The notes under the pieces: generated by a model
The model's database searches: none
What the model was told of the DNA's origin: nothing
Seen by the model: the letters and a program-made list of their open reading frames with translations, nothing else
Assembly (NCBI GenBank): GCA_000092065.1
Contig: CP000600.1
Reading direction: 5' to 3' (one strand)
Origin: Ostreococcus lucimarinus
Taxonomy: Eukaryota
Length of the DNA stretch: 64,000 nt
Position numbers and translations under genes: made by a program
Part shown: piece after piece, positions 20,435 through 60,915 of the stretch
How positions within the stretch are numbered: position 1 is the stretch's first letter
How the letters are laid out: every line of letters starts with the position of its first letter

Positions 20435-20813
20435 ACGACGTTGTCGTGCGAACGCGCGCAGTTTTTCACCTCCGCGGCGTCAAAAACGCCGGCAACCGCG
20501 CGCCCTTCGCGTCTCGCAACCATCTCGCGAACATCTCGCGCGCCTTCGTCTTCGTCGCTTCGCGTCCGACCTCATCCCTCCCGTCGCCGTTTTCCATCGC
20601 TCTGCGCGCGTCTTTATTTTTTCCCGCGTACGTCTTCACCGGCATCCACCACAGCGGTCGATACGTCATCGCTTTATGTCGTCTCGCGTTTCTCCGCGCG
20701 TCGCCGCGGCGTCGCGTTACCCTCGGTTGGAGGATTCTTATCCACTTCCTCTGTTCTCCACACGGCCGCGCGCGTCCACGCGCGCACGCCACGCGCGCGC
20801 GCATCGACGCACG

Positions 20814-23800
20814 ATGCTCGCGCGCGCCGACGTCGTCGCTCGCGCGTCGTCGCTCGCGCTCGCGACGCGCTCGCGACGCGATTTCCCGACGCCGACGCGG
20901 TCGACGATGCGCGCGCGTCGAGCGCCCGCGGCGCGCGTGACGCGCGCGATTCGCGCGCGAGGCGACGCGGGAACGCGCGCGCGCGACGTCGCGCCGGGCG
21001 CGACGCGGCGCGGGGCGTCGGCGACGCCGCGGGCGACGCGACGGCCGAGCGCGAGGGAGACGCGGCCGGAGCTGTACGGCTTGGACGCCTCGTGGGACCC
21101 GCTGACGAGCGGCGATCGGCGGGAGAGCGAGGAGTCGCGAACGCCGCTTCCAGAAACGCTGCCGAACGTGCGATGGGGGACGAGCGCGAGCGAGGCGTAC
21201 GATTTGGTGATTGTCGGGTGCGGACCGGCGGGGCTGACGGCGGCGGACGAGGCGAGCAAGCGCGGATTGCGCGTGGCGTTGATGGATCCGTCGCCGCTCG
21301 CGCCGTGGATGAATAATTACGGGGTGTGGTGCGACGAGTTTAAATCGCTCGGGTTCGATGATTGCTATCGCGCGGTGTGGAACAAGGCGCGAGTTATTAT
21401 AGACGACGGCGACGCCGACGGGAAGATGCTCGACCGCGCGTACGCGCAGGTGGATCGGAAGAAGCTCAAGCAGAAGCTCATCGCGCGCAGCGTGACGCAG
21501 GGCGTGGAGTTTGGTATCGCCGCGGTCGATAGCTGCGATAACAGCGATCCGAACCATTCGGTGGTGACTTTGAGCGATGGACGCAAGGTCTATGCGAAGA
21601 TGGTTTTGGACGCCACTGGGCACTCTCGTAAGCTGGTGGACTTTGATCGCGATTTTACGCCGGGATATCAAGCCGCTTTCGGAATCGTGTGCACAGTGGA
21701 GAAGCACGACTTTCCGTTGGACACGATGCTGTTCATGGACTGGCGAGACGAGCACTTGAGCCCAGAGTTTAAGCGAGCGAACGACAGGTTGCCGACGTTT
21801 TTGTACGCCATGCCTTTCTCGGAAACTGAGGTGTTCCTCGAGGAAACGAGCTTGGTGGCACGACCTGGCTTAGAGTTTGACGACTTGAAGCTCAAGTTGA
21901 AGGAGCGTTTGGATTATTTGGGCGTGAAAGTAACCAAGGTACACGAAGAGGAGTATTGTCTCATTCCCATGGGCGGCGTGTTGCCGACGTTTCCGCAACG
22001 CACGCTCGGCATCGGTGGAACCGCCGGCATGGTCCATCCTAGCACTGGATTTATGGTCGCAAAGACGATGTTATGCGTTAGAACGCTCGTAGGCACGCTT
22101 GATGAAGCCCTTAAGGCGGGTAAGCGAGGGGATATTACCGGCGCCCTGGAAGCGGCGGAGGCGGCGCAAATGAACAACGGTAAATTCGACGCCGACGCCA
22201 CCGCGGCATTAGTGTGGAACTCAATTTGGCCGGAGAATGATTTGCGCATGCGCACTTTCATGTGCTTTGGAATGGAGACTCTTATGCAGCTCGATATCGA
22301 TGGAACGCGTCAATTCTTTGACACGTTCTTCGACCTTCCCAAGGACGTCTGGGCTGGCTTTTTGAGCTGGCGAATCCAGCCGGTGGGCTTGCTTTCGCTC
22401 GGGGTGAATCTGTTCGCGTTGTTTTCGAACTACATGCGAGTTAACTTTGTCAAATCCGCTCTGCCTTTCATGGGGTCGTTCTTCGCAAACTTTGCGTTCG
22501 CCGACAACAAGTTTGACTCGAGCAAGTGGGGCGGTTTCATCCTCGAAGATGGCAAAAACAACGCCTTCAAGTCGGTCGAAAACGGGCCTATTCCCGCCCC
22601 GGTCGGAAATCCCACTGCGAAACCGATCACAAGCAGCGCATTAGACTTTGAGAAGATCTTAGCCGAAGACACACTGAGCAAGCCGCAGGACATGAAGCCG
22701 GAGACGATGAAGGATGATCGCGAATGGATTGCGTTTCAACAGCGCAAGGTGTTTAGTGAGCAAAAGCAAATCAAAGAGTACCTCAGTGCTTTGAACGACC
22801 GCGACAAGGTCGACGTTCTCGTTGTCGGTGCGGGCCCCGCAGGTCTGGCGATCGCAGCGGAGACGGCGAAGAAGGGTCTTTCTGTTGGTCTCGTCGCACC
22901 AGACACCCCGTTCGTGAACAACTACGGAGTATGGCTCGACGAGTTCAAAGATCTAGGGCTCGAACACTGCTTGCTTCATAAGTATGACGACGCATTGGTT
23001 TGGTTCGATGATTCTGATCCTGCGAGTGGAACTGAACTCGGTCGACCTTACGGTCAAGTGTGCCGCAGGCGTCTTCGCGACCATTTGTTGAAGGAGTGCG
23101 CGGCGGCTGGCGTCAAGTATTTACCAGGCCTGGTAGATTTTGTGCGTCACGGTGACGTCGAAAAGAACGAGTTAGCCGAAGTTCGAGGCACCATCATTAG
23201 CGATTCCGATATTACCGCAAGCGAGAAGAAGTTGATCGAAGAAGAGGCAAACAGAGGCCAGCAATTCACGTTGAATTCGCGTCTCGTCGTTGCCGGCACC
23301 GGTCACAACCGCGACATGCTCAGCTACGAAGAGGGTGCGCCGCCGGGCTGGCAGACTGCGTATGGCGTTGAGGTGCGCATTCCGAACCACGGTTTTCCCG
23401 TGAACAAGGCCGTGTTCATGGATTTTCGTCAAAGCGATCCGGAGGCGATGAAAGAGGAACAAGACGAGGGCGTTTGGCGCGTGCCGTCTTTCCTTTACGT
23501 GTTACCCGTGGACAAGGATGTGGTGTTCGTCGAGGAGACGTGCCTCGTCGCGCGCGTACAAGTGCCGTTCGATGAACTCAAACGGCGATTGTATCGTCGT
23601 ATGAAGCGGATGGGTATGGAAATCGTCGAAGAAGACATCTTGGAAGTCGAGGCGAGTTGGATTCCACTGGGCGGTACCCCGCCGGTTGCCCCGCAACGCA
23701 CCATCGCGTACGGTGCAGCAGCCGGCATGGTCCACCCTGCGTCTGGCTACTCCGTCGTAAACAGTATTAGCAAAGCTCCGCGTGTTGCGACGGCCATGGC

Positions 23801-25142
23801 CGAAGGCTTGAAGGAGGGTGGCGAGATTGAGGCGAGCCGAAGAGCGTGGGAAATCCTTTGGGGTGCGGAGCCACGAAGACAAATCGGTTTCTACCAGTTC
23901 GGTATGGAGCTTCTCATGTCGCTTCGCATCGAGCAGATGCGCAACTTCTTTAGTACCTTCTTTGCGCTTCCAACAAATCTGAGCAGAGGATTTTTGGGTA
24001 ACAGATTGTCGAGCTCAGAGTTGATCATGTTTGCTCTCACTACGTTCGCAATTGGTAACAACGAACTTCGTGGGTTGTTGCTCGCTCACCTGGTTTCAGC
24101 TGGGGGTTCTGGCAGTCGGTTGGCCAAGGCGTATGCATATCCTTTGTTTCCGAAGGATGAGAGTGGTTTAGATGTGTTACAAGTCAACCGCAAAGAGCAA
24201 GCGGACGCGAAAAACACGACGAAGATGATGGCAGACTTTTACGAGTCCCAGCAAGGAGGCATGCTTCCCGGATACATGGGCCGAGATTGGTGGTCGATCG
24301 GGAGACGTGGAAACGGTGAGGAGCACGACGACGACGACGGCACCGACGGCGGTCGTTTCGGCGGCGGTGGTGGCGCTCAAGTTTCCGCTTCAGCGCAAAG
24401 AGAAGAGGTCACCATTGGCGCCATGAAGATGGACGCGTCCAACGAAGGTGCGGTCACGTTTTGGTCCAACGGAAGCGCTGCAATGATCGTAACGAGTGCG
24501 GTACGCAAAACTGGTCTCAGTCAAACTGATCTCTACGGCGAACGACGCAAAAAGTTTTTGCCGTCGGCGTTCATTTCCCAAGCGCCGAATGTCGTCCCGC
24601 CGCACCTCACCGGTTCTCTTCCTGGTGATATTGGATGGGATCCTTTGGCGCTCGGTGCGCAAAGCGATATCGAACGCTATCGCGCGAGAGAATTGATTCA
24701 CGGTCGATGGGCCATGCTCGCGTGCATCGGCGTGCTCGTCCCCGAATTCCTCGCGCACAACTCCATCTTCGGCACCCCGGACCAGCACTGGTGGAACACG
24801 CAAATCATCAACGACCCCATCGATGGCTTACAGCTCACCTACCTCGGGGAAACAATTCCTTGGGGCTTATTCTGGCTTCCCATCATCCACCTTCCGCTCA
24901 TGTTTGTCGCGGAATCTCTTCGCAACGGCACCTACGAGGTCGAGGCGTTCAAGGATTTGGACAAGCTCTACCCCGGCGGCCGTCTCTTCGATCCCCTCGG
25001 CCTCGCCGCGGGCCAAACCGAGGAAGATTTGAACATCTTAAAAACCATCGAGATTCAGCACGCTCGATTGGCGATGATCGGGACTTTCGTCTTCATCGTC
25101 GAGGGCTTAGCCGGCGGTCGCGGACCCCTCGATTTCTTTTAG
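20814..25142 (+). CDS. Lycopene beta-cyclase / lycopene epsilon-cyclase / light-harvesting-complex (LHC) three-domain fusion protein, chloroplast-targeted
   Basis: Two tandem CrtL-type cyclase domains, each with an FAD dinucleotide-binding motif (DLVIVGCGPAGL and DVLVVGAGPAGLAIA) and FLEETSLVARP / FVEETCLVAR motifs. C-terminal chlorophyll a/b-binding domain (ELIHGRWAMLACIGVLVPE ... EIQHARLAMIGTFVFIVEG). Single uninterrupted ORF. Start taken at ATG 20814 (cTP-like) because the 5' extension of the ORF has AT-ending codons. Confidence 0.9.
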   Translation: MLARADVVARASSLALATRSRRDFPTPTRSTMRARRAPAARVTRAIRARGDAGTRARDVAPGATRRGASATPRATRRPSARETRPELYGLDASWDPLTSGDRRESEESRTPLPETLPNVRWGTSASEAYDLVIVGCGPAGLTAADEASKRGLRVALMDPSPLAPWMNNYGVWCDEFKSLGFDDCYRAVWNKARVIIDDGDADGKMLDRAYAQVDRKKLKQKLIARSVTQGVEFGIAAVDSCDNSDPNHSVVTLSDGRKVYAKMVLDATGHSRKLVDFDRDFTPGYQAAFGIVCTVEKHDFPLDTMLFMDWRDEHLSPEFKRANDRLPTFLYAMPFSETEVFLEETSLVARPGLEFDDLKLKLKERLDYLGVKVTKVHEEEYCLIPMGGVLPTFPQRTLGIGGTAGMVHPSTGFMVAKTMLCVRTLVGTLDEALKAGKRGDITGALEAAEAAQMNNGKFDADATAALVWNSIWPENDLRMRTFMCFGMETLMQLDIDGTRQFFDTFFDLPKDVWAGFLSWRIQPVGLLSLGVNLFALFSNYMRVNFVKSALPFMGSFFANFAFADNKFDSSKWGGFILEDGKNNAFKSVENGPIPAPVGNPTAKPITSSALDFEKILAEDTLSKPQDMKPETMKDDREWIAFQQRKVFSEQKQIKEYLSALNDRDKVDVLVVGAGPAGLAIAAETAKKGLSVGLVAPDTPFVNNYGVWLDEFKDLGLEHCLLHKYDDALVWFDDSDPASGTELGRPYGQVCRRRLRDHLLKECAAAGVKYLPGLVDFVRHGDVEKNELAEVRGTIISDSDITASEKKLIEEEANRGQQFTLNSRLVVAGTGHNRDMLSYEEGAPPGWQTAYGVEVRIPNHGFPVNKAVFMDFRQSDPEAMKEEQDEGVWRVPSFLYVLPVDKDVVFVEETCLVARVQVPFDELKRRLYRRMKRMGMEIVEEDILEVEASWIPLGGTPPVAPQRTIAYGAAAGMVHPASGYSVVNSISKAPRVATAMAEGLKEGGEIEASRRAWEILWGAEPRRQIGFYQFGMELLMSLRIEQMRNFFSTFFALPTNLSRGFLGNRLSSSELIMFALTTFAIGNNELRGLLLAHLVSAGGSGSRLAKAYAYPLFPKDESGLDVLQVNRKEQADAKNTTKMMADFYESQQGGMLPGYMGRDWWSIGRRGNGEEHDDDDGTDGGRFGGGGGAQVSASAQREEVTIGAMKMDASNEGAVTFWSNGSAAMIVTSAVRKTGLSQTDLYGERRKKFLPSAFISQAPNVVPPHLTGSLPGDIGWDPLALGAQSDIERYRARELIHGRWAMLACIGVLVPEFLAHNSIFGTPDQHWWNTQIINDPIDGLQLTYLGETIPWGLFWLPIIHLPLMFVAESLRNGTYEVEAFKDLDKLYPGGRLFDPLGLAAGQTEEDLNILKTIEIQHARLAMIGTFVFIVEGLAGGRGPLDFF

Positions 25143-43332: not shown

Positions 43333-44232
43333 ATGGAACCGATTCAGTTCACGCTGAGCGCGCGGACGGGCATCGCGGACGAGGAGGGAAGGACGCGCGA
43401 CGGCCCGGCGCGCGTGGAGGCGCTGGACGCGTGCGCGATGACGATGCGAGTGGGCGAGCGGGCGACGTTTGAGTGCGGGGCGGCGCTGGCGTACGGGAAG
43501 GAGGGGAACTTTTCGTTCCCGGCGGTGGGGAAAGACAGGGCGGTGGTGTTGGATTTGGAGATATTGGGCGCGCGGGGGAGCGCGGCGGCGCCGGAGATGC
43601 GACAGAGGGACATGACGTACGAGCAACGGGTGGAGCGCGTGCGCGCGCATCGATCGAACGGGAACGCGGCGTTCGCGGGGGGGCGCGCGCGCGAGGCCGT
43701 GCGCGAATACTCGATGGCGTTGACGTACTTGACGGAAGATTTTATGATGCAGTTGTTCGATAAGTACGAGGTCGAGGCGCACGAGGAGTTCGTCGCCGCG
43801 CACGGGAATTTGGCGGCGGCGTATTTGCGATTGGGCGCGTTCGAAGACGCGGTGACGCACGTCGGGTACGTCTTGAAGGTGGACGAGAACAACGCAAAGG
43901 CGTATTACAGGCGCGGTAAGGCGCGAGCGGGTTTAGGGCAGGAGGACGCCGCGAGAGAAGATTTTTTAAAGGCTAAGAAAATTACCGAAGCCGCGGGCCT
44001 CGTCGACGCGAACGTCGTCAAGGCGTTGCGAGAGATCGACGCGGCGATTCGTGATCGCGAGCGGGCGACATCGGCGGCGTTCAAGGGTATTTTCAATACG
44101 AAAACGGACGGTGGCGACGCATCGTCGAATGCCGACGCGAACGTCGCGCGAAAACCGCCGGATGGTGGCGGTTCGTTCATCTCTCGCGCAGTCGCGTCAT
44201 TATTTGGAAAATCGAGGCGCGAGGGGCCGTGA
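43333..44232 (+). CDS. TPR-repeat protein with degenerate N-terminal FKBP-like domain (TTC9/FKBP38-like)
   Basis: N-terminal ...GERATFECGAALAYGKEGNFSFPAVGKDRAVVLDLEILG resembles the C-terminal half of an FKBP fold. Followed by three TPR-like units (RSNGNAAFAGGRAREAVREYSMAL, NLAAAYLRLGAFEDAVTHVGYVL, AKAYYRRGKARAGLGQEDAAREDF). True ATG. Confidence 0.65.
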   Translation: MEPIQFTLSARTGIADEEGRTRDGPARVEALDACAMTMRVGERATFECGAALAYGKEGNFSFPAVGKDRAVVLDLEILGARGSAAAPEMRQRDMTYEQRVERVRAHRSNGNAAFAGGRAREAVREYSMALTYLTEDFMMQLFDKYEVEAHEEFVAAHGNLAAAYLRLGAFEDAVTHVGYVLKVDENNAKAYYRRGKARAGLGQEDAAREDFLKAKKITEAAGLVDANVVKALREIDAAIRDRERATSAAFKGIFNTKTDGGDASSNADANVARKPPDGGGSFISRAVASLFGKSRREGP

Positions 44233-44259: not shown

Positions 44260-46218
44260 ATGTCGGAAGAACCGAAAGAAATCACAGGCGCCACTGCGCT
44301 CTGCAAAGTCGCCGCGGCCGGAGGCGTCGAGGTGTGCTTCGCTAATCCCGGGACTTCAGAGATGCACGTCGTCGGCGCGCTGGCCGAGTGCGCGGATATT
44401 CGCAGCGTCCTCGTTCTCCACGAAAACGTCGCCACGGGCGCGGCGGACGGGTACTCTCGCGTCAAGCGCGACGTCAACCGCGATCGAAACGCGATGGCGA
44501 TGACTCTTTTGCATCTCGCCCCTGGCTTGATGAACGGACTTTCGAACTTGCACAACGCGAGCCGCGGCCGGAGCTCCATTCTCAACGTCGTCGGCGAGAT
44601 GAGCACGTTTCATCGAGGTAACGAAGCCCTGTTGGAGAACGATATCGAGTCGCTCGCGCGGACGGTGTCGACGAAATACGTGCACACGAGTGCGGCGGTG
44701 GATGCGATCGCGAGTGATGCTGCGGACGCGATCGAAGCGGCGCTTCGACACCGCGGCGTTGCCACGCAAATCGTGCCGCACGATTTGACTTGGTCTCGCG
44801 TGTTGGACAGTGGCAGACTGAGCGACGCCATCGCGCGCGCCGAAAACGTTCGCAATAGAAGAGACGGCGCCGAAGACGTGGTCGTCACTGATGCCGTTCG
44901 CGCTTTTCTGCGTGAAATGCTCGCTCGCGCGAAACCGTTGGCGCGCGGCGAAGTTCTCTTTTACATCGGAGGCGATGCGTGCGGCGAGGAAGAACTGCGG
45001 ATCGTCGGCGACGTCGCGGAAGCGCTCGGTGCGGACGTGGTGTGTGAGTGCTTCTTTTCTTGCATCGAACGCGGTGGCGATATGCCCAAAGTGCAGCGCG
45101 CGCCTTACTTTCCGAAAGACGCGGCGAACGCGTTCGCCAAGTACAAAGTCGTCATTTTTCTCGACGTGCCGCGACCGCCAACGGCGATGTTCGGCTACCG
45201 CGATTCTCCGACGAAGTTGTTCGCACAGAACGACGACGACATGTGGTTTGTCGATCCTCCCGGAAACGCGATGATGCTTGACGTCTTGCGCGCGCTCGCG
45301 ATGGAAGTGAATATCGGCGTTCAATGCGCGCCGAAGATGTCAGACGTCGCCGCCGTCGTTGAGCACGTCGTTTCCGAAGCGCTCGCGAAATCGGTCGAGG
45401 ACAAGGAGGATAGTTTGTGGAACTACGGGATGACGAGCACGAAGGCAGTGAGCGTGCACGACAAACTGTGCAAAGAGTTCGACATCAAGTTACAATCGAC
45501 GATTGTGTTCAATCACAATTCGATCAACGCGCTCACGAACGCCGTCGCGACAAAGCTCGGCATCGCAGACGAATCACCGAAGACTGCGATCGCACCGAAG
45601 GACGTAGACGCCAGCCCAAAGTCCACGCTCGAGGGTGAATACGTCCAAGTGCGATGCGATTCACCGACGGGCGCCTTGAACGGTGCCAAGGTGTGTCGAA
45701 TCATAGCCGGCATGCAACCAGCCGGCGCGATCGTCGTGGACGAATCGCTCACCTCTGGATCGACGTACTGGAAGGACAGCGAATCGTCGGCGCGTTTTAC
45801 GCACATGACGCTCACCGGCGGTTCCATCGGTTTCGCGAACGCCGCGGCGGTCGGGGTCGCTTTGGCCGCGCCCGAGAGACAAACGATCGCGCTCGTCGGC
45901 GACGGTTCGGCTCAATACACCGTCCAGGCCCTTTGGACGCAGGCGCGCGAGAAACTCAACGTCGTCACCGTGATCATGAACAACTCCAAGTATCAAATTC
46001 TCCGCGTCGAGTGCGCTATCCAGGGCGTTCGCGCGTCCGGAGGCGCGTGCGACTCGCTCACGAAACTCGACGACCCCTCGATCGACTGGTGCAAACTCGC
46101 CGAAGGGTACGGTGTTCGCGGCGTCCGCACCACTACCTGCGAGGAGTTTGCAGACGCGTTCGCGCGCGCGCTCGACGCCGACGGTCCGACGCTTATCGAT
46201 GCTGTTTTAGAGGCGTGA
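44260..46218 (+). CDS. Thiamine-diphosphate-dependent enzyme of the acetolactate-synthase/ILVBL-like family with an embedded phosphopantetheine-attachment (acyl-carrier-like) domain
   Basis: TPP_enzyme_N (EITGATALCKVAAAGGVEVCFANPG...HENVATGAADGYSR), central domain (VLFYIGGDACGEEELRIVGDVAEALGADVV), and C-terminal PP domain with GDG-x24-NN (LVGDGSAQYTVQALWTQAREKLNVVTVIMNN). Inserted between middle and PP domains is a stretch about 70 aa long that matches the PP-binding profile (DSLWNYGMTSTKAVSVHDKLCKEFDIKLQSTIVFNHNSINALTNAV). True ATG at 44260, only 27 nt after the preceding gene's stop. Confidence 0.8.
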   Translation: MSEEPKEITGATALCKVAAAGGVEVCFANPGTSEMHVVGALAECADIRSVLVLHENVATGAADGYSRVKRDVNRDRNAMAMTLLHLAPGLMNGLSNLHNASRGRSSILNVVGEMSTFHRGNEALLENDIESLARTVSTKYVHTSAAVDAIASDAADAIEAALRHRGVATQIVPHDLTWSRVLDSGRLSDAIARAENVRNRRDGAEDVVVTDAVRAFLREMLARAKPLARGEVLFYIGGDACGEEELRIVGDVAEALGADVVCECFFSCIERGGDMPKVQRAPYFPKDAANAFAKYKVVIFLDVPRPPTAMFGYRDSPTKLFAQNDDDMWFVDPPGNAMMLDVLRALAMEVNIGVQCAPKMSDVAAVVEHVVSEALAKSVEDKEDSLWNYGMTSTKAVSVHDKLCKEFDIKLQSTIVFNHNSINALTNAVATKLGIADESPKTAIAPKDVDASPKSTLEGEYVQVRCDSPTGALNGAKVCRIIAGMQPAGAIVVDESLTSGSTYWKDSESSARFTHMTLTGGSIGFANAAAVGVALAAPERQTIALVGDGSAQYTVQALWTQAREKLNVVTVIMNNSKYQILRVECAIQGVRASGGACDSLTKLDDPSIDWCKLAEGYGVRGVRTTTCEEFADAFARALDADGPTLIDAVLEA

Positions 46219-55174: not shown

Positions 55175-55708
55175 ATGCTCGCGCGCCGCGACGCCCTCCT
55201 GAGCGCCGCGCTGAGCGCCGGCGCGCTCGCGCGACCGCGACGCGCGCGCGCGGCGCCGGCGCCGACGTTCGCGCCGACCAGGGACGGCGTGCGGTTCCGC
55301 GACGCGCGCGTCGGCGACGGACCCGAGGTGTTCGCGCACGACGCCGTCGTCATCCTCTTCACCGCGCGCGTCCTGCCGAGCGACGACGGCGCGCTCGATC
55401 GGCGGCGCGCGGGGGACACGTTCGATCCGTTCGTCGTCGGCGGCGCGGGCGCGAGCGCGTCGAAGGGATTCAAGCTGGAGATTGGGAGCGCGACGAATGA
55501 CATTCCGGAGGGCTGGGCGCGCGCGTTCGAGGGCGACGGCGACGCGATGCCGCGGATGCGAATCGGTGGGAAACGAATCGTGCGGATACCGCCGAGCTTG
55601 GCGTACGGCGAGCGAGGGCATCACTGTCGAGACGGCGTGCGAGGGGCGTGCGAGGTGAACCCGGGGGAGAGCGTGGAGATTGACTTTGAGATTCTTCGGT
55701 ACACGTGA
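55175..55708 (+). CDS. FKBP-type peptidyl-prolyl cis-trans isomerase with twin-arginine (lumenal) presequence
   Basis: MLARRDALLSAALSAGALARPRRARAAPA presequence, then FKBP fold (GVRFRDARVGDGPEVFAHDAVVILFTARV...DTFDPFVVGGAG...IPEGWARAFEGD...MRIGGKRIVRIPPSLAYGERG...ESVEIDFEILRY). Confidence 0.8.
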   Translation: MLARRDALLSAALSAGALARPRRARAAPAPTFAPTRDGVRFRDARVGDGPEVFAHDAVVILFTARVLPSDDGALDRRRAGDTFDPFVVGGAGASASKGFKLEIGSATNDIPEGWARAFEGDGDAMPRMRIGGKRIVRIPPSLAYGERGHHCRDGVRGACEVNPGESVEIDFEILRYT

Positions 55709-55721
55709 CGCGTCATCGTCG

Positions 55722-56687
55722 CTATCGATGCTCGTCGTCGGAGACGGTCGTCGCGGCCTGGGCGAGGGCTTTCTTCTTTAGCATCCATTTCGGCGCGTCG
55801 TCGCGGCGGGGCGACAACGCGCTTACCGAAGCCGGCGCGACGCCTTTCGCCTTGGCCTCGAACACGCCGTCGTCCTTCGCGGCGGCGCCGATGGCGACGA
55901 TGTACGATTTCTTCTCGTCTCCGGACGGAAGCGCGGTGAATATCTGCGCGAAGACGACGACGTTCGGGTCCTTCAAATTCACCGAGACTTCGCACTCGGC
56001 GTCGGCGTCCTTGAACGCTCGCTCGCACGCCTTCGCAATCTTCGGCACCATCACCGCGCGCCCGTGCGCGACGTCGGACGCGTCCGTGTCTTCCTCGCTA
56101 ACGCTAGCGGTGCTATCCACCCTCTTGTTATACACCACCGCGAACGCGATCGATTTCGATCTCGCGTCTTCGCTCCGCGCGCGCGTCTCCCGCACGACTC
56201 TCTCCACGCACGCTCGCATCCCGTCCTCGTCCCCGACCTCGAACGCGCCGTCGATCGGGTACATCTTGTATAAAAATTCCGACCCCTCGTCCTTCCCTCC
56301 TCGCACGTCGTCGAGCGCTCGTTTCACCGTCGCCGTCGCCGTCCGCGCCGAGCCGCCGCCGCTCGCCGCCATCAACAGCGCCCCCCTCGCCGGCAGTTTC
56401 ACCGGCGCGTACGCCGAGTCCTCCCCCAGCATCCGTCGCAACGCCGCCGTCGCGCTCTTCTCTCTCGATTGCCGGCACGTCGCGAACACCGCTCGGACGG
56501 CGCCGTCGCCGTCGCCGCGCTCGAGCAGCGTCGCCCGCAGCGTCGCGTACGCGAACCTCCGAAACTCGCCCGCGCCGCGCGCGCGCTTCGCGTCGCCGCC
56601 GTCGTCGTCGTCGGCGTCGTCGCGCGGCGCTCGGCGTCGCATCTGCGCCTCGGCGGCGTCGCGCAGGCGCGCCGACGGCGACGACAT
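55722..56687 (-). CDS. THUMPD1: THUMP domain protein (THUMPD1/Tan1-like)
   Basis: From ATG 56687: MSSPSARLRDAAEAQMRRRAPRDDADDDDGGDAKRARGAGEFRRF... N-terminal basic/acidic region as in THUMPD1. THUMP-type core (IAFAVVYNKRVDSTASVSEE...VSVNLKDPNVVVFAQIFTALP...YIVAIGAA). Confidence 0.7.
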   Translation of the reverse strand: MSSPSARLRDAAEAQMRRRAPRDDADDDDGGDAKRARGAGEFRRFAYATLRATLLERGDGDGAVRAVFATCRQSREKSATAALRRMLGEDSAYAPVKLPARGALLMAASGGGSARTATATVKRALDDVRGGKDEGSEFLYKMYPIDGAFEVGDEDGMRACVERVVRETRARSEDARSKSIAFAVVYNKRVDSTASVSEEDTDASDVAHGRAVMVPKIAKACERAFKDADAECEVSVNLKDPNVVVFAQIFTALPSGDEKKSYIVAIGAAAKDDGVFEAKAKGVAPASVSALSPRRDDAPKWMLKKKALAQAATTVSDDEHR

Positions 56688-56847
56688 GGATTTCGGCGCC
56701 AAAACGCCGCGCAGTGACGACCGACGTCGTCGTCGTCGCGCGCGCCGGGCGCGCGCGATACCGCGCGAAGGCGCGAGCGCGCCGTTCGCATCGTCGTCGT
56801 CGTCGTCGACGGCGCGTGTGAGTCGAACGGCGCGACGGGAAGGCGCG

Positions 56848-59800
56848 ATGCGTCGACGCGTCGCGAATGTCTCGCGGCATCTTAATCTCAATCTCGCGAC
56901 GCGCGCGACGCGCGGACGGGCGATCTGGACGGCTCGAGCGGATCGAGACGACCGCGCGGATGTCGCGGCGCGAACGGGGGGGCGGGACGCGGCGGGAGAG
57001 ACGTCGGGGCGCGAGGGGGTGGAGGTGGACGCGGGGACGGCGGCGAGGCGGACGACGAACGGCGTGCGAGCGCCGTTCGAACCCTCGGGAGATCAGCCGA
57101 GCGCGATCGAGCGGTGCAAGGAGCTGCTGAGCGATCGCGATAGGAAGTTTGTGTGCCTGAGGGGGGCGACGGGGACCGGGAAGACGTACGTCGTGGCGAA
57201 CGTGTTGGCGGCGCAGCGAAAGCCGGCGCTCGTGGTGGTGCCGAATAAGACGCTCGCGGCGCAAGTCGCGCGCGAACTTCGGGCGTATCTGGGCGAGAGT
57301 CACCGGGTGGAGCTGTTTGTGTCGCATTTCTCGGTGTACGTGCCGGAGTCGTACTCCAATGGGCGGTACACGGAGAAGCGAAGCGCGATTGATTCTGATC
57401 TGGACGCGTTGCGGCATCGAGCGACGCGAGCGCTCGTTGAACCTGGGAAGACGCCCGTCGTCGTCGCGAGCGTGAGTTGCCTGTATGGTTTGGGGTTACC
57501 GACGGATTACGTAGATGCGGCGCTGACGATCGAGATCGGGGCCTCGGCGTCGACATTCGGCATCGACGGCGTCGAGGATAAGCTTCGCGACGATTTACTG
57601 TACGAGCGCGTGATGCCGTACATGGATATTGAGCGCGGTCAATACAAAACTACCGCCGCACCTGACGACGACAACTGCTTCACCATCACTATTTGGCCGC
57701 CATATTTGGAAAGTGCGTTGGACGTACGAGTTCGAGGCGACGACGGCGTCGTCGTCGCGTGTGAAGCGCGCGGACGCCGGGTCGATTTACCGCTCACGAT
57801 TTGGCCGCGCGTGCACTACATCACCCCGGCCGAGCGCCTGCAACGCGCGCTCGTGAGCATCAAGGCTGAACTGGACGAACAAACGAAGAAGCTTCGCGCC
57901 GAGGGGTGCGCGATCGAGGCTGATAGACTGGAGCAGAGAACCAACGCCGACTTGACCTTGCTGCGAGAGCTCGGTTGGTGCCCAGGCGCCGAGCACTACA
58001 GCCGTCATTTACGCTGCGCAAAGCCCGAAGAGCCGCCGGTGACGCTTCTGGATTACTTTTCATACTCAGCGGACTCCCAAACGCGTCGCGACTGGTTATT
58101 GGTCGCCGACGAATCTCACGTCATGCTGCCGCAACTTCGCGCGATGCACGGCGGCGACAGAAGCCGTAAAACGGCGCTCGTGGGCGCCGGTTATCGTCTG
58201 CCATCGGCGTTGGACAATCGTCCACTCATGAGCGAAGAATTCTGGCAGCGTGTCCCGCAGGCACTGCTCGTGAGCGCGACTCCGGGCGATATTGAGACGG
58301 AATGGGTCGGCGGCAAGTCGAGCGATGCCATGGTTGACATGGTCGTGCGACCGAGCGGCGTGCTCGATCCGCCGGTGCACGTCGTAGGCAAAGAGAATCA
58401 ACTCGAAGCGTTGGCACAGCGAGTGAATGAGAAAGCTAAGATTGGCGAACGCTCGCTGGTGTGCGTGCTCACCAAGGCGGACACCGAGGATCTGTCGATG
58501 TACTTGAACGCGCACGGCGTGCGCGCCGATTGGGTGCACTCAGAGCTCACTGCCCCGCAACGTGCCGAAAAACTGTCCAAGCTTCAACAAGGCGAACTAG
58601 ATTGTATCGTGGGTGCGCAGCTTCTGCGCGAAGGCTTGGATCTACCTTCAGTGTCGCTCGTCGCCATTTTAGATGCGGATATTCCTGGTTTCATGCGAAG
58701 CGCGCGCTCGTTGATGCAGATGGCTGGCCGGGCGGCGCGGAACAAGAACGGCGAATGCGTGCTCTTTGCGGATTCCATCACCGCCGCCATGAAAGAGATG
58801 ATGAATGAGGTCGATCGTCGTCGCGTGAAACAACACAAGCACAATGTCGACAACAATCTCGTTCCGGTGACGGCGACGTTGGGGTCTTCGACGTCGACGC
58901 TCTCTCTCTTCGACGTCATGGCGGATGAGATCGAACTTGAGAAGCAAAAGTGGGCCGTAGAACAGTCCGCTGCGCTCACGTCGCCGAAGAGTGCTGAAGT
59001 AGACACGGAAGCCGTCGATAAAGCGCTCCGAAGTTGGCGAAAGCGACGAGAAGGCGGCGGCGTACGGCCGGGTCCGAAACCGTCAGACGCGCTCAAAGAA
59101 GTGCAGGTGGAGGAGGGCGAAAAACTCGTCGCCGAGACTGTGTTAGATGCGTATGGGCTCGATGCGACGCATGTCGAGCGACTCAGGCGTTTACATCGCG
59201 ATATGCCATCGAAAACAGGAGTGTATCGATGGATCGATGAGGCTGGCAACGTGCTTTACGTCGGCAAGGCGAAGAATTTGCGCTCGCGGACTGGGCACTA
59301 TCTGTCGCCCGCATTGATACAGTCATCGCCGCGACATCGAAAGCTCTTAGCCTCAGCACGCACTCTCGATGCTGTGCTGACGCCAGGCGGCGAAGCCGAT
59401 GCGCTTGCGCTCGAAGCGAGATTAATTCAGCGCGAGCGTCCAGCGTTGAACATTTTGCTGAAGGATGCGCCGAAGCCCGAAAGCGCGCGAATCGTTTTGA
59501 CATCGAGGGATGCCGACGGGCGTATTTTCGTGGCTAAGTTTCAAAATGAGTTCGACCCCACCAGAGCCGAGAAAGTGTGGACTCTCCCCACTCGCGAAGC
59601 AGCAATTCGTATGATGGCTGTTCTCGAACGTGCGCTCGATTTGCGCGGCGTTTCGTTTCGCTCGCGTTTCGGCGAAACCGCCGCCGTCGCGCAGTGGCGC
59701 TTCGCCGCGGAAGTCGCGACTTTGGTACTCGATGCCAAGTATGACGAAGCGGTCGCGGCACTGGAAGACCGTGGTGAAGTTGCGTCGGCGCTTGAGTTGC

Positions 59801-60915
59801 GAATATCCGCCCAAGAAGAAGCCGAGCGAGGCCAGGGCGCTCGCGGTTCGCTCGCTGCGCTCCTGCAAGCGGACTCCGCGGCAAAGCAATGGAACATGGA
59901 TGTCATCGCTGCCGCGAGCAGTGGTGGTGCGACATGTGCGGTAAAGATCGTTAAAGTGCGCGACGGTACAATAGTTGACGTCTACGGTACGAGTGTGGAT
60001 GTGCCGAATGCCACAGCGGACGACGCCATCGCCGAGGCCACTCTAGCCGAAGCCGCACAGCTCGTCGCCGAGCAGATGTACTTGAGCGAATTCTCCGATC
60101 GCCCGGACATGGTGTACATCCCGCACACTATCGCAGAACCGATGAACTTACGCGCAGCGCTTCGTCACACCGGCGTCGGCGCCAACGCGACGAAGAAGAG
60201 TAAGGTCTTGCACCACGGTGCCGCCAAGGAAGGATCGCTCCTCGAGGCGCTCGCGGAAATGGCACTCGAGAACGCCGACGAATCCGCGCGCGCAACGGCG
60301 GTGAAATCCGCCGCGGCGCTTCGCTTAAAGGACGCCATCGGACTCGATGAGTCCCCCACGAGCATCGAAGGCGTGGACGTTTCTCATCTCGCCGGCCAGA
60401 ACGCTGTGACGAGCTTTGTTCGATTCGAGGGAGGTTCGCCGGCGCCGCTCAAGCATCGCCGATACCAGCTCAGTGAAGCCGTAACACCAAGCGACGACTA
60501 TGGTGGTATCGCTGAGTCAATAACCGCGCGCTTGGCGTCCAAGAGCAAACTTCCGGACGTCTTTCTCATCGACGGTGGAGTCGGCCAACTCACCGCGGCG
60601 GCGCACGCGCTTCGCGAAGGCGGCGTCGTCATCTCAAACATGATCGACGACGACAACACCCCGATCGCCGATTCCAGCGCAAAGGCACATCGAACCGTTG
60701 CCTTGTGCGCGCTCGCCAAGGGCCGAAGCAGCGGTGAAGAGGCTCTATGGGTCCCCGCGCTCTCGCCCGGAGGCGTCGTCATGGGCCGAAAAGTCGACGA
60801 CGCCCACCTTGACGCGCTAAAACTTCTCCGTTCGGTGCGCGACAGCGCCCACGCCGTGGCGCTCGGCGCGCATCGTTCTTTACGTCGCGAAGAGCGACTA
60901 AACGCCTTCGCTTAG
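56848..60915 (+). CDS. Fused bacterial-type nucleotide-excision-repair protein: UvrB (helicase) N-terminal two-thirds plus UvrC (GIY-YIG / endonuclease) C-terminal part, with organelle-type presequence
   Basis: UvrB part: [18 protein letters not shown], Walker A [83 protein letters not shown]. Helicase domain 3: [36 protein letters not shown]...[54 protein letters not shown]. UvrC part: GIY-YIG ([31 protein letters not shown]), then [36 protein letters not shown] ... [17 protein letters not shown]. One continuous ORF. Start taken at ATG about 56848 ([23 protein letters not shown]). An alternative upstream ATG at 56686 sits in the CCATGG mirror of the THUMPD1 start. Confidence 0.85.
   Translation: [1355 protein letters not shown]

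Follow-up and report, generated by a model that had tools for sequence, protein, structure and literature searches.

Why should an enzyme that binds thiamine diphosphate (ThDP) contain, within its own chain, a domain of the kind that carries the pantetheine arm in polyketide synthases (PKSs)? The question is raised by a gene in a 64,000-nucleotide stretch of Ostreococcus lucimarinus DNA (assembly GCA_000092065.1, contig CP000600.1; hereafter the window), which an earlier note, made from the sequence alone, had described as encoding an acetolactate-synthase-like enzyme with an inserted phosphopantetheine carrier domain. The gene occupies 44260..46218 on the forward strand, stop codon included, and was delimited from the open reading frame (ORF) list and from Pfam and NCBIfam matches. 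It is a single uninterrupted ORF with an ATG start and encodes a 652-residue ThDP enzyme with an internal carrier domain; a protein 100% identical to its product (P0001) occurs in many metagenome contigs. ThDP enzymes and carrier proteins have both been studied heavily. Nevertheless, literature searches gave no description of this gene or of any ThDP enzyme with an integrated carrier domain; the earlier note, too, had called the architecture not a standard one. The carrier profile PF00550 has already been recorded on these proteins by automatic pipelines, so the architecture is visible in the databases, where it has not been remarked on.

The inserted carrier domain

The insert (45337..45555, forward strand; aa 360-432) matches the Pfam PP-binding profile PF00550 over aa 369-428, with 27.4 bits (E 4e-6) in the context of the whole protein against a gathering cut-off of 20.8, and with 32.2 bits (E 1.3e-7) when it is excised. 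The profile search on which the earlier note had staked its proposal therefore returned a significant match. In the full-length AlphaFold model (predicted local distance difference test, pLDDT, 90.9; predicted template-modelling score, pTM, 0.85) the insert folds as a four-helix bundle, with helices at residues 360-375, 393-407, 415-418 and 422-432 (pLDDT ~94-96). When the domain was modelled by itself (pLDDT 81.9) its 50 best matches in the PDB were all acyl or peptidyl carrier proteins (ACPs or PCPs; template-modelling score, TM, 0.7-0.8, root-mean-square deviation 1.2-1.8 Å), among them PCPs solved in complex with Sfp and PCP-R structures of carboxylic acid reductases. The best PDB match by sequence is the ACP 2n98 (E 8.6e-4), whose DS serine aligns to Ser393 of the window protein.

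An exhaustive HMMER search with a profile of the carrier domain recovered 10,283 proteins, with multi-carrier megasynthases at the top, while a word-indexed database search with the same profile gave two fragments only. Among single domains the closest relative scores 57.7 bits; it is an ACP that follows ketosynthase (KS) and ketoreductase (KR) regions in a 5878-aa protein (P0284), called a type I PKS by its DTACSSS and HGTGT ketosynthase motifs. Judged by profile and modelled fold, the inserted domain is a PKS-type acyl carrier domain, lying in a surface linker between the central and the diphosphate-binding domains of the enzyme. It resembles the carriers of PKSs, non-ribosomal peptide synthetases (NRPSs) and fatty acid synthases (FASs) in its profile (PF00550), in its four-helix fold and in having a serine at the start of helix II, and those closest to it are type I PKS ACPs. 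It differs in its host, a ThDP enzyme where standard carriers sit in synthases or synthetases, and in its motif, G-[ML]-[TNS]-S-[TAR] in place of G-x-D-S-[ILV].

The earlier note had placed a serine in the attachment motif, and this is indeed where the predicted 4'-phosphopantetheine site falls. The sequence 'GMTS' (G390-M-T-S393) is encoded at nt 45427-45438, and the codon of Ser393, assigned from translation and conservation, is at 45436..45438 (forward strand). In the AlphaFold model Ser393 lies at the N-terminus of helix II, the canonical pantetheine position. The extent of the insert required revision. A carrier is present within the span first proposed (about residues 375-445), but the folded part runs from 360 to 432 and is followed by a disordered tether that reaches to ~468. 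The carrier is flanked by flexible segments on both sides, a short N-side hinge (45310..45336, forward strand; aa 351-359), with pLDDT ~70 and a mean pairwise identity of 0.21 among relatives, and the longer C-side tether (45556..45663, forward strand; aa 433-468), of variable length, with pLDDT below 50 at aa 439-463 and an identity of 0.27. This tether and those of the orthologues contain a recurring SP-x-S-x-L (e.g. 'SPKSTLE', 'SPTSTLES', 'SPKSSLDA'), which could be a phosphorylation or docking motif.

The ThDP catalytic core

All three domains of a ThDP enzyme that the earlier note had described are present, the first and last by Pfam matches and the central one by its modelled structure. 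The N-terminal pyrimidine-binding (PYR) domain (44284..44631, forward strand; aa 9-124) matches PF02776 TPP_enzyme_N (E 1.9e-19), and as a structural domain it reaches ~aa 180, with pLDDT >93 over most of its length. The central alpha/beta domain (44890..45309, forward strand; aa ~211-350) was delimited from the secondary structure and pLDDT of the AlphaFold model and from the whole-chain Foldseek match to benzoylformate decarboxylase (BFD); Pfam gives no TPP_enzyme_M match in the protein, despite the alpha/beta fold of this region in the model. The C-terminal diphosphate-binding (PP) domain (45664..46209, forward strand; aa 469-650) aligns to BFD residues 343-520 and matches PF02775 TPP_enzyme_C over aa 518-647 (E 5.9e-31). 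The order PYR, central, PP is borne out both by the AlphaFold model and by Foldseek, with TM ~0.8 to BFD normalised over the whole target.

Within the PP domain the Mg2+/diphosphate motif GDG-x24-NN is exact, as had been claimed, running from G547 to N575 (45898..45984, forward strand), with G547-D-G followed by N574-N575; D548, G549 and N575 do not vary among 112 sequences. The cofactor-activating glutamate, Glu55 (codon 44422..44424, forward strand; equivalent to Glu47 of BFD by profile-PDB alignment), is likewise invariant in this set, and Thr32, Glu34, Glu55 and His85, which correspond to Ser26, Glu28, Glu47 and His70 of BFD, are invariant or nearly so among the 112 members. BFD His281 falls in the central domain, which HMMER left unaligned. 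The protein is predicted to be a complete, catalytically intact ThDP enzyme of BFD fold.

In the PDB the protein comes closest, whether compared by sequence or by fold, to benzoylformate and 4-hydroxybenzoylformate decarboxylases (E 3e-40; TM ~0.8, target-normalised; 22% identity). The window protein keeps the equivalents of Ser26, Glu28, Glu47 and His70 found in BFD (PDB 1bfd, 6qsi, 7orx), which has no carrier. In the pocket, however, BFD residues F397, L403, A460 and F464 are replaced by T517, I523, I580 and E584 in the profile-PDB alignment, which makes benzoylformate an unlikely substrate.

The description 'acetolactate-synthase-like' holds at the level of the superfamily and no further. 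The model for the large subunit of biosynthetic acetolactate synthase, TIGR00118, gives 96.3 bits against a cut-off of 538, and that for benzoylformate decarboxylase, NF005485 (PRK07092), gives 188.1 bits against 493, so that BFD is the nearest relative in structure and not by family. By contrast NF005760 (PRK07586) reaches 494.5 bits, above its cut-off of 363, in two stretches that are interrupted precisely where the insert lies. The best 25 of 62 NCBIfam matches include neither oxalyl-CoA decarboxylase nor 2-hydroxyacyl-CoA lyase. On these scores the protein is assigned to the uncharacterised PRK07586 subfamily and not to the true acetolactate synthases. The database name of PRK07586 (NF005760) is 'acetolactate synthase large subunit' and its taxa are mainly alphaproteobacteria and chlorophyte algae; a full-text literature search for PRK07586 returned no paper, and the subfamily appears uncharacterised.

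Over the catalytic domains the window protein is 42-47% identical to other PRK07586 members and has in common with them all invariant residues. They are ~510-590 aa long and carrier-less, whereas the window protein adds ~110 residues (hinge, carrier and tether) at profile positions ~326-339. The linker that houses the carrier in Mamiellales, equivalent to window aa ~350-470, contains in carrier-less chlorophyte homologues (Chlorella, Micractinium, Parachlorella, Auxenochlorella, Chloropicon and Pedinophyceae) a short conserved motif, N-C-(G/C/R)-G-x-F, which is absent from the bacterial members.

The genomic neighbourhoods of four carrier-less bacterial homologues contain no ACP, ligase or obvious operon. 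A 73-aa ORF upstream of the Hyphomicrobium genes was considered as a stand-alone ACP and rejected, as it has no carrier motif. Three alphaproteobacterial loci (L004, L005 and L006) share a conserved run of genes encoding DUF1491, DUF3775, the ThDP enzyme, a zinc-dependent alcohol dehydrogenase, an HD protein, a second zinc-dependent alcohol dehydrogenase, a NUDIX protein, an APH-like kinase and a CoA-binding acetyltransferase.

Conservation and relocation of the carrier

The carrier is not peculiar to O. lucimarinus. It is found at the same site in 13 relatives (53-67% identical over the alignment) and at another site in two Bathycoccus-type proteins, and these 15 carrier-bearing proteins all match PF00550, as do 15 of the 27 aligned family members. 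The search for orthologues suggested in the earlier note thus found the same insertion repeatedly and, with it, the serine: both Gly390, at position -3, and Ser393 are invariant in 15/15 carrier-bearing relatives, which represent at least five lineages. The 13 same-site proteins have a mean pairwise identity of 0.59-0.67 in the catalytic domains and 0.45 in the carrier, and it falls to the values given above in hinge and tether. Such a pattern, a conserved domain between disordered flanks of low identity, is what selection on a mobile domain with flexible linkers would leave.

The carrier-bearing genes lie in conserved synteny and are true orthologues, across Mamiellales. The order is Aladin-like WD40, NAD_binding_10, Pex2/12 RING (reverse strand), FKBP/TPR, the ThDP-carrier gene, CSN3 (reverse strand), GST, Dcc1 (reverse strand) and Slu7, and four further lineages, which range in GC content from 0.50 to 0.65, share this neighbourhood with the window. 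The O. tauri orthologue (XP_003082888.2) is annotated 'Thiamine pyrophosphate enzyme, C-terminal TPP-binding', the Bathycoccus prasinos member (CAL6358937.1, cluster P0046) 'unnamed protein product', and the other named members all 'acetolactate synthase large subunit'. Such breadth leaves scarcely any room for the view that the fusion is an artefact, whether a gene-model error, an in-frame unspliced intron or an assembly chimera: general caution is due when a eukaryotic genome is read with a prokaryote-style ORF finder, but the ORF is uninterrupted, the insert is a folded, profile-recognised domain, and the architecture recurs in hundreds of independent contigs as well as in annotated proteins of O. 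tauri and B. prasinos.

In the syntenic orthologues of Bathycoccus type (L002:4236-6419, that is P0054, and P0046) the carrier occupies aa 245-309, where it separates the PYR domain from the central one. It is homologous to that of the window protein, to which it aligns colinearly, with 'GLTS' for 'GMTS' and the same unusual threonine, and it scores 24 bits against a hidden Markov model (HMM) built without that domain. In a neighbour-joining tree of 508 catalytic columns, which is indicative only as no bootstrap was computed, the carrier-bearing proteins form one clade. The carrier-bearing gene is a Mamiellales-specific paralogue within PRK07586; on the simplest history it acquired a PKS-type ACP once, after duplication, and the domain changed its position later, in the line leading to Bathycoccus. 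As the carrier has been kept while its position shifted, the carrier itself seems to be required and its position to be free, and among the computational arguments for such a requirement this is the strongest.

A carrier-less Mamiellales paralogue forms its own clade in the same tree, comprising the P0022 cluster (Micromonas commoda XP_002505730.1, 573 aa), P0020 and P0034. A decayed remnant of the carrier at the original site was also considered in the Bathycoccus-type proteins (EKKESLWRTDIA compared with DKEDSLWNYGMT). The correct part of the HMM does align to this stretch ('EKKESLW...'), in which the motif of B. prasinos is decayed further, but the score of -0.6 bits (E ~0.7) is not significant and the candidate was rejected.

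Proposed function and its alternatives

As a general model we propose that the ThDP enzyme acts on a substrate or product tied as a thioester to its own pantetheine arm, a reading that on balance we narrowly favour. An Sfp-type phosphopantetheinyl transferase (PPTase) of the alga would attach the arm to Ser393 and so give the holo form; for both O. tauri and Micromonas RCC299, group II (Sfp-type) PPTases are listed in PMC4103896. The carrier would then swing on its ~36-residue disordered tether, allowing the pantetheine thiol to enter the ThDP active site of the dimer, and the substrate or product would be held on an arm that stands in place of CoA. Alternatively, a redox-neutral ThDP reaction might yield an acyl group that the arm captures. 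That the coupling of acyl group and thiol should be redox-neutral follows from the lack of a TPP_enzyme_M match and from the BFD fold, which has no flavin.

Three classes of reaction could be envisaged. ThDP might attack the carbonyl of the tethered thioester, much as oxalyl-CoA decarboxylase and 2-hydroxyacyl-CoA lyase act on CoA esters; a 1,2-dicarbonyl might be cleaved thiolytically, and not hydrolytically, to an aldehyde and an acyl-S-carrier; or the thiol, instead of phosphate, might trap an acyl-ThDP formed by beta-elimination, in the manner of sulfoacetaldehyde acetyltransferase and phosphoketolase.

Oxalyl-CoA decarboxylase and 2-hydroxyacyl-CoA lyase are ThDP enzymes that work on pantetheine thioesters, although their CoA is free and not tethered. 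In the 2-oxoacid dehydrogenases the E1 component is served by a prosthetic arm whose small domain moves on flexible linkers, but that arm is lipoyl, redox-active and borne by a separate E2. These would be the nearest mechanistic analogies, and they are no more than that, as the window protein is not in either family. Single pantetheine domains that shuttle an intermediate are also known in enzymes outside assembly lines, namely ALDH1L1 (10-formyltetrahydrofolate dehydrogenase) and the carboxylic acid reductases, where the carrier is paired with hydrolase and aldehyde-dehydrogenase domains or with adenylation and reductase domains, respectively. In neither case is the partner a ThDP domain.

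The window protein may be the first ThDP enzyme with a covalently tethered pantetheine arm, a single polypeptide that makes an enzyme-bound thioester from a small carbonyl compound, or processes one, without CoA, lipoate or a synthase, and it may define a new lineage-specific pathway of Ostreococcus, Bathycoccus and relatives, which are among the most abundant picoeukaryotic algae of the ocean; we put forward this fuller claim tentatively, with rather less than even confidence. If the arm is functional it would represent a new way to couple umpolung (acyl-anion) chemistry with that of thioesters, of interest to enzymologists and pathway engineers. It would also provide the first functional handle on PRK07586, a large subfamily with thousands of sequences labelled 'acetolactate synthase', and would indicate a conserved, lineage-specific metabolic step in Mamiellales. 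The hypothesis is directly testable, since Ostreococcus tauri is genetically tractable.

Several observations weigh against a working arm. The bacterial homologues, those of other green algae and the Mamiellales paralogue are all carrier-less, and as these work without a carrier the core chemistry does not need a thioester. Redox-neutral coupling leaves fewer possible substrates. No loading, off-loading or partner enzyme is found within the window, where Pfam scans of 20 long ORFs gave no PPTase, adenylating enzyme, PKS or thioesterase. Finally, the motif is atypical. In the carrier-bearing relatives position -1 is occupied by Thr, Asn or Ser, with no case of Asp or His, and residue +1 is polar (Thr, Ala or Arg). 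In a reference set of 758 carrier domains, taken from the 149 top-scoring proteins (megasynthases), residue -1 is Asp in 79%, with Thr (6%), Asn (5%) and Ser (2%) together accounting for 13%, and residue +1 is Ile, Leu or Val in 86%, Thr in 3% and Ala in 3%.

Taken together, the aberrant motif, a family that functions carrier-less in bacteria, other chlorophytes and the Mamiellales paralogue, and the lack of partner genes near the locus would also be expected if the domain were a conserved carrier-like fold that is not pantetheinylated, and serves as a structural, regulatory or docking module of an ordinary 2-oxoacid decarboxylase or carboligase. The conservation pattern argues otherwise, for Ser393 and Gly390 are fixed while the surface of the domain mostly varies, and they remain so even after the move in Bathycoccus. 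Constancy of the serine is not what a purely structural role would produce. Long disordered tethers would in addition be unusual for a docked structural domain. Moreover, the exact motifs GLTST, GLTSA and GMTSA are found in the reference megasynthases, and as the same variants sit in true megasynthase carriers, the form seen here is a minority one yet is compatible with a working carrier. We consider an unmodified module unlikely, though likelier than the other alternatives.

The PKS-type character of the carrier raises a different possibility, that the protein is a free-standing loading didomain whose ThDP domain produces an unusual acyl starter or extender on its own carrier, to be passed in trans to a giant type I PKS or FAS. 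The position of the best single-domain relative, in a type I PKS of 5878 residues, agrees with this, as does the presence of several multimodular PKSs in Ostreococcus and Micromonas (PMC4661987). However, Bathycoccus prasinos retains the fusion (CAL6358937.1) yet is listed without a type I PKS (PMC4661987). The gene, moreover, lies amid housekeeping neighbours (Pex2/12-like RING, FKBP/TPR, CSN3, GST, Dcc1 and Slu7) with no adjoining PKS, and Pfam identifies no docking element and no KS or acyltransferase (AT) element in the protein. Such a loader seems to us quite improbable. The same Bathycoccus evidence, with the absence of any PKS, adenylating enzyme or PPTase from the window, weakens the related suggestion in the earlier note that the product is handed to a partner synthase.

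Genomic setting

The gene directly upstream, on the same strand, encodes an FKBP-like/TPR protein (43333..44232, forward strand; Pfam TPR_1 and TPR_2 matches, with a weak FKBP_C match). Its stop codon ends at 44232 and the ATG of the ThDP-carrier gene is at 44260, a gap of 27 nt, exactly as the earlier note had reported. The tandem pair also occurs in four other lineages, with gaps of 27-76 nt, and all lineages (window; junctions in L002, L007, L008 and L009) have the FKBP-like/TPR gene immediately before the ThDP gene, in the same orientation. The two genes may be bicistronic or tightly co-transcribed. A conserved tail, ...F(F/I)SR(I/V/A)(F/V)..., closes the TPR protein in four lineages. A read-through fusion of the two genes was considered and rejected, as this conserved C-terminal motif is followed by a real stop in four lineages; in L002, furthermore, the two genes are in different reading frames.

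The N-terminus of the ThDP-carrier protein exceeds that of its bacterial homologues by only ~8 residues in the alignment, which leaves no apparent transit peptide. This agrees with the earlier note, which had seen no chloroplast transit peptide, and from its sequence the enzyme is apparently cytosolic.

Two further ORFs of the window encode large multidomain proteins. One, of 1736 aa (55705-60915, forward strand), joins helicase (ResIII/DEAD and Helicase_C) and UvrB domains to RNase H-like endonuclease domains of UvrC; judged from its domain matches, this eukaryotic alga has an apparent fusion of UvrB-UvrC type. The other, of 1488 aa (20676-25142, forward strand), consists of two lycopene cyclase domains and a C-terminal chlorophyll a/b-binding domain; we take it to be the LCYB/LCYE/LHC fusion known from Ostreococcus, which fits the Mamiellales origin of this DNA.

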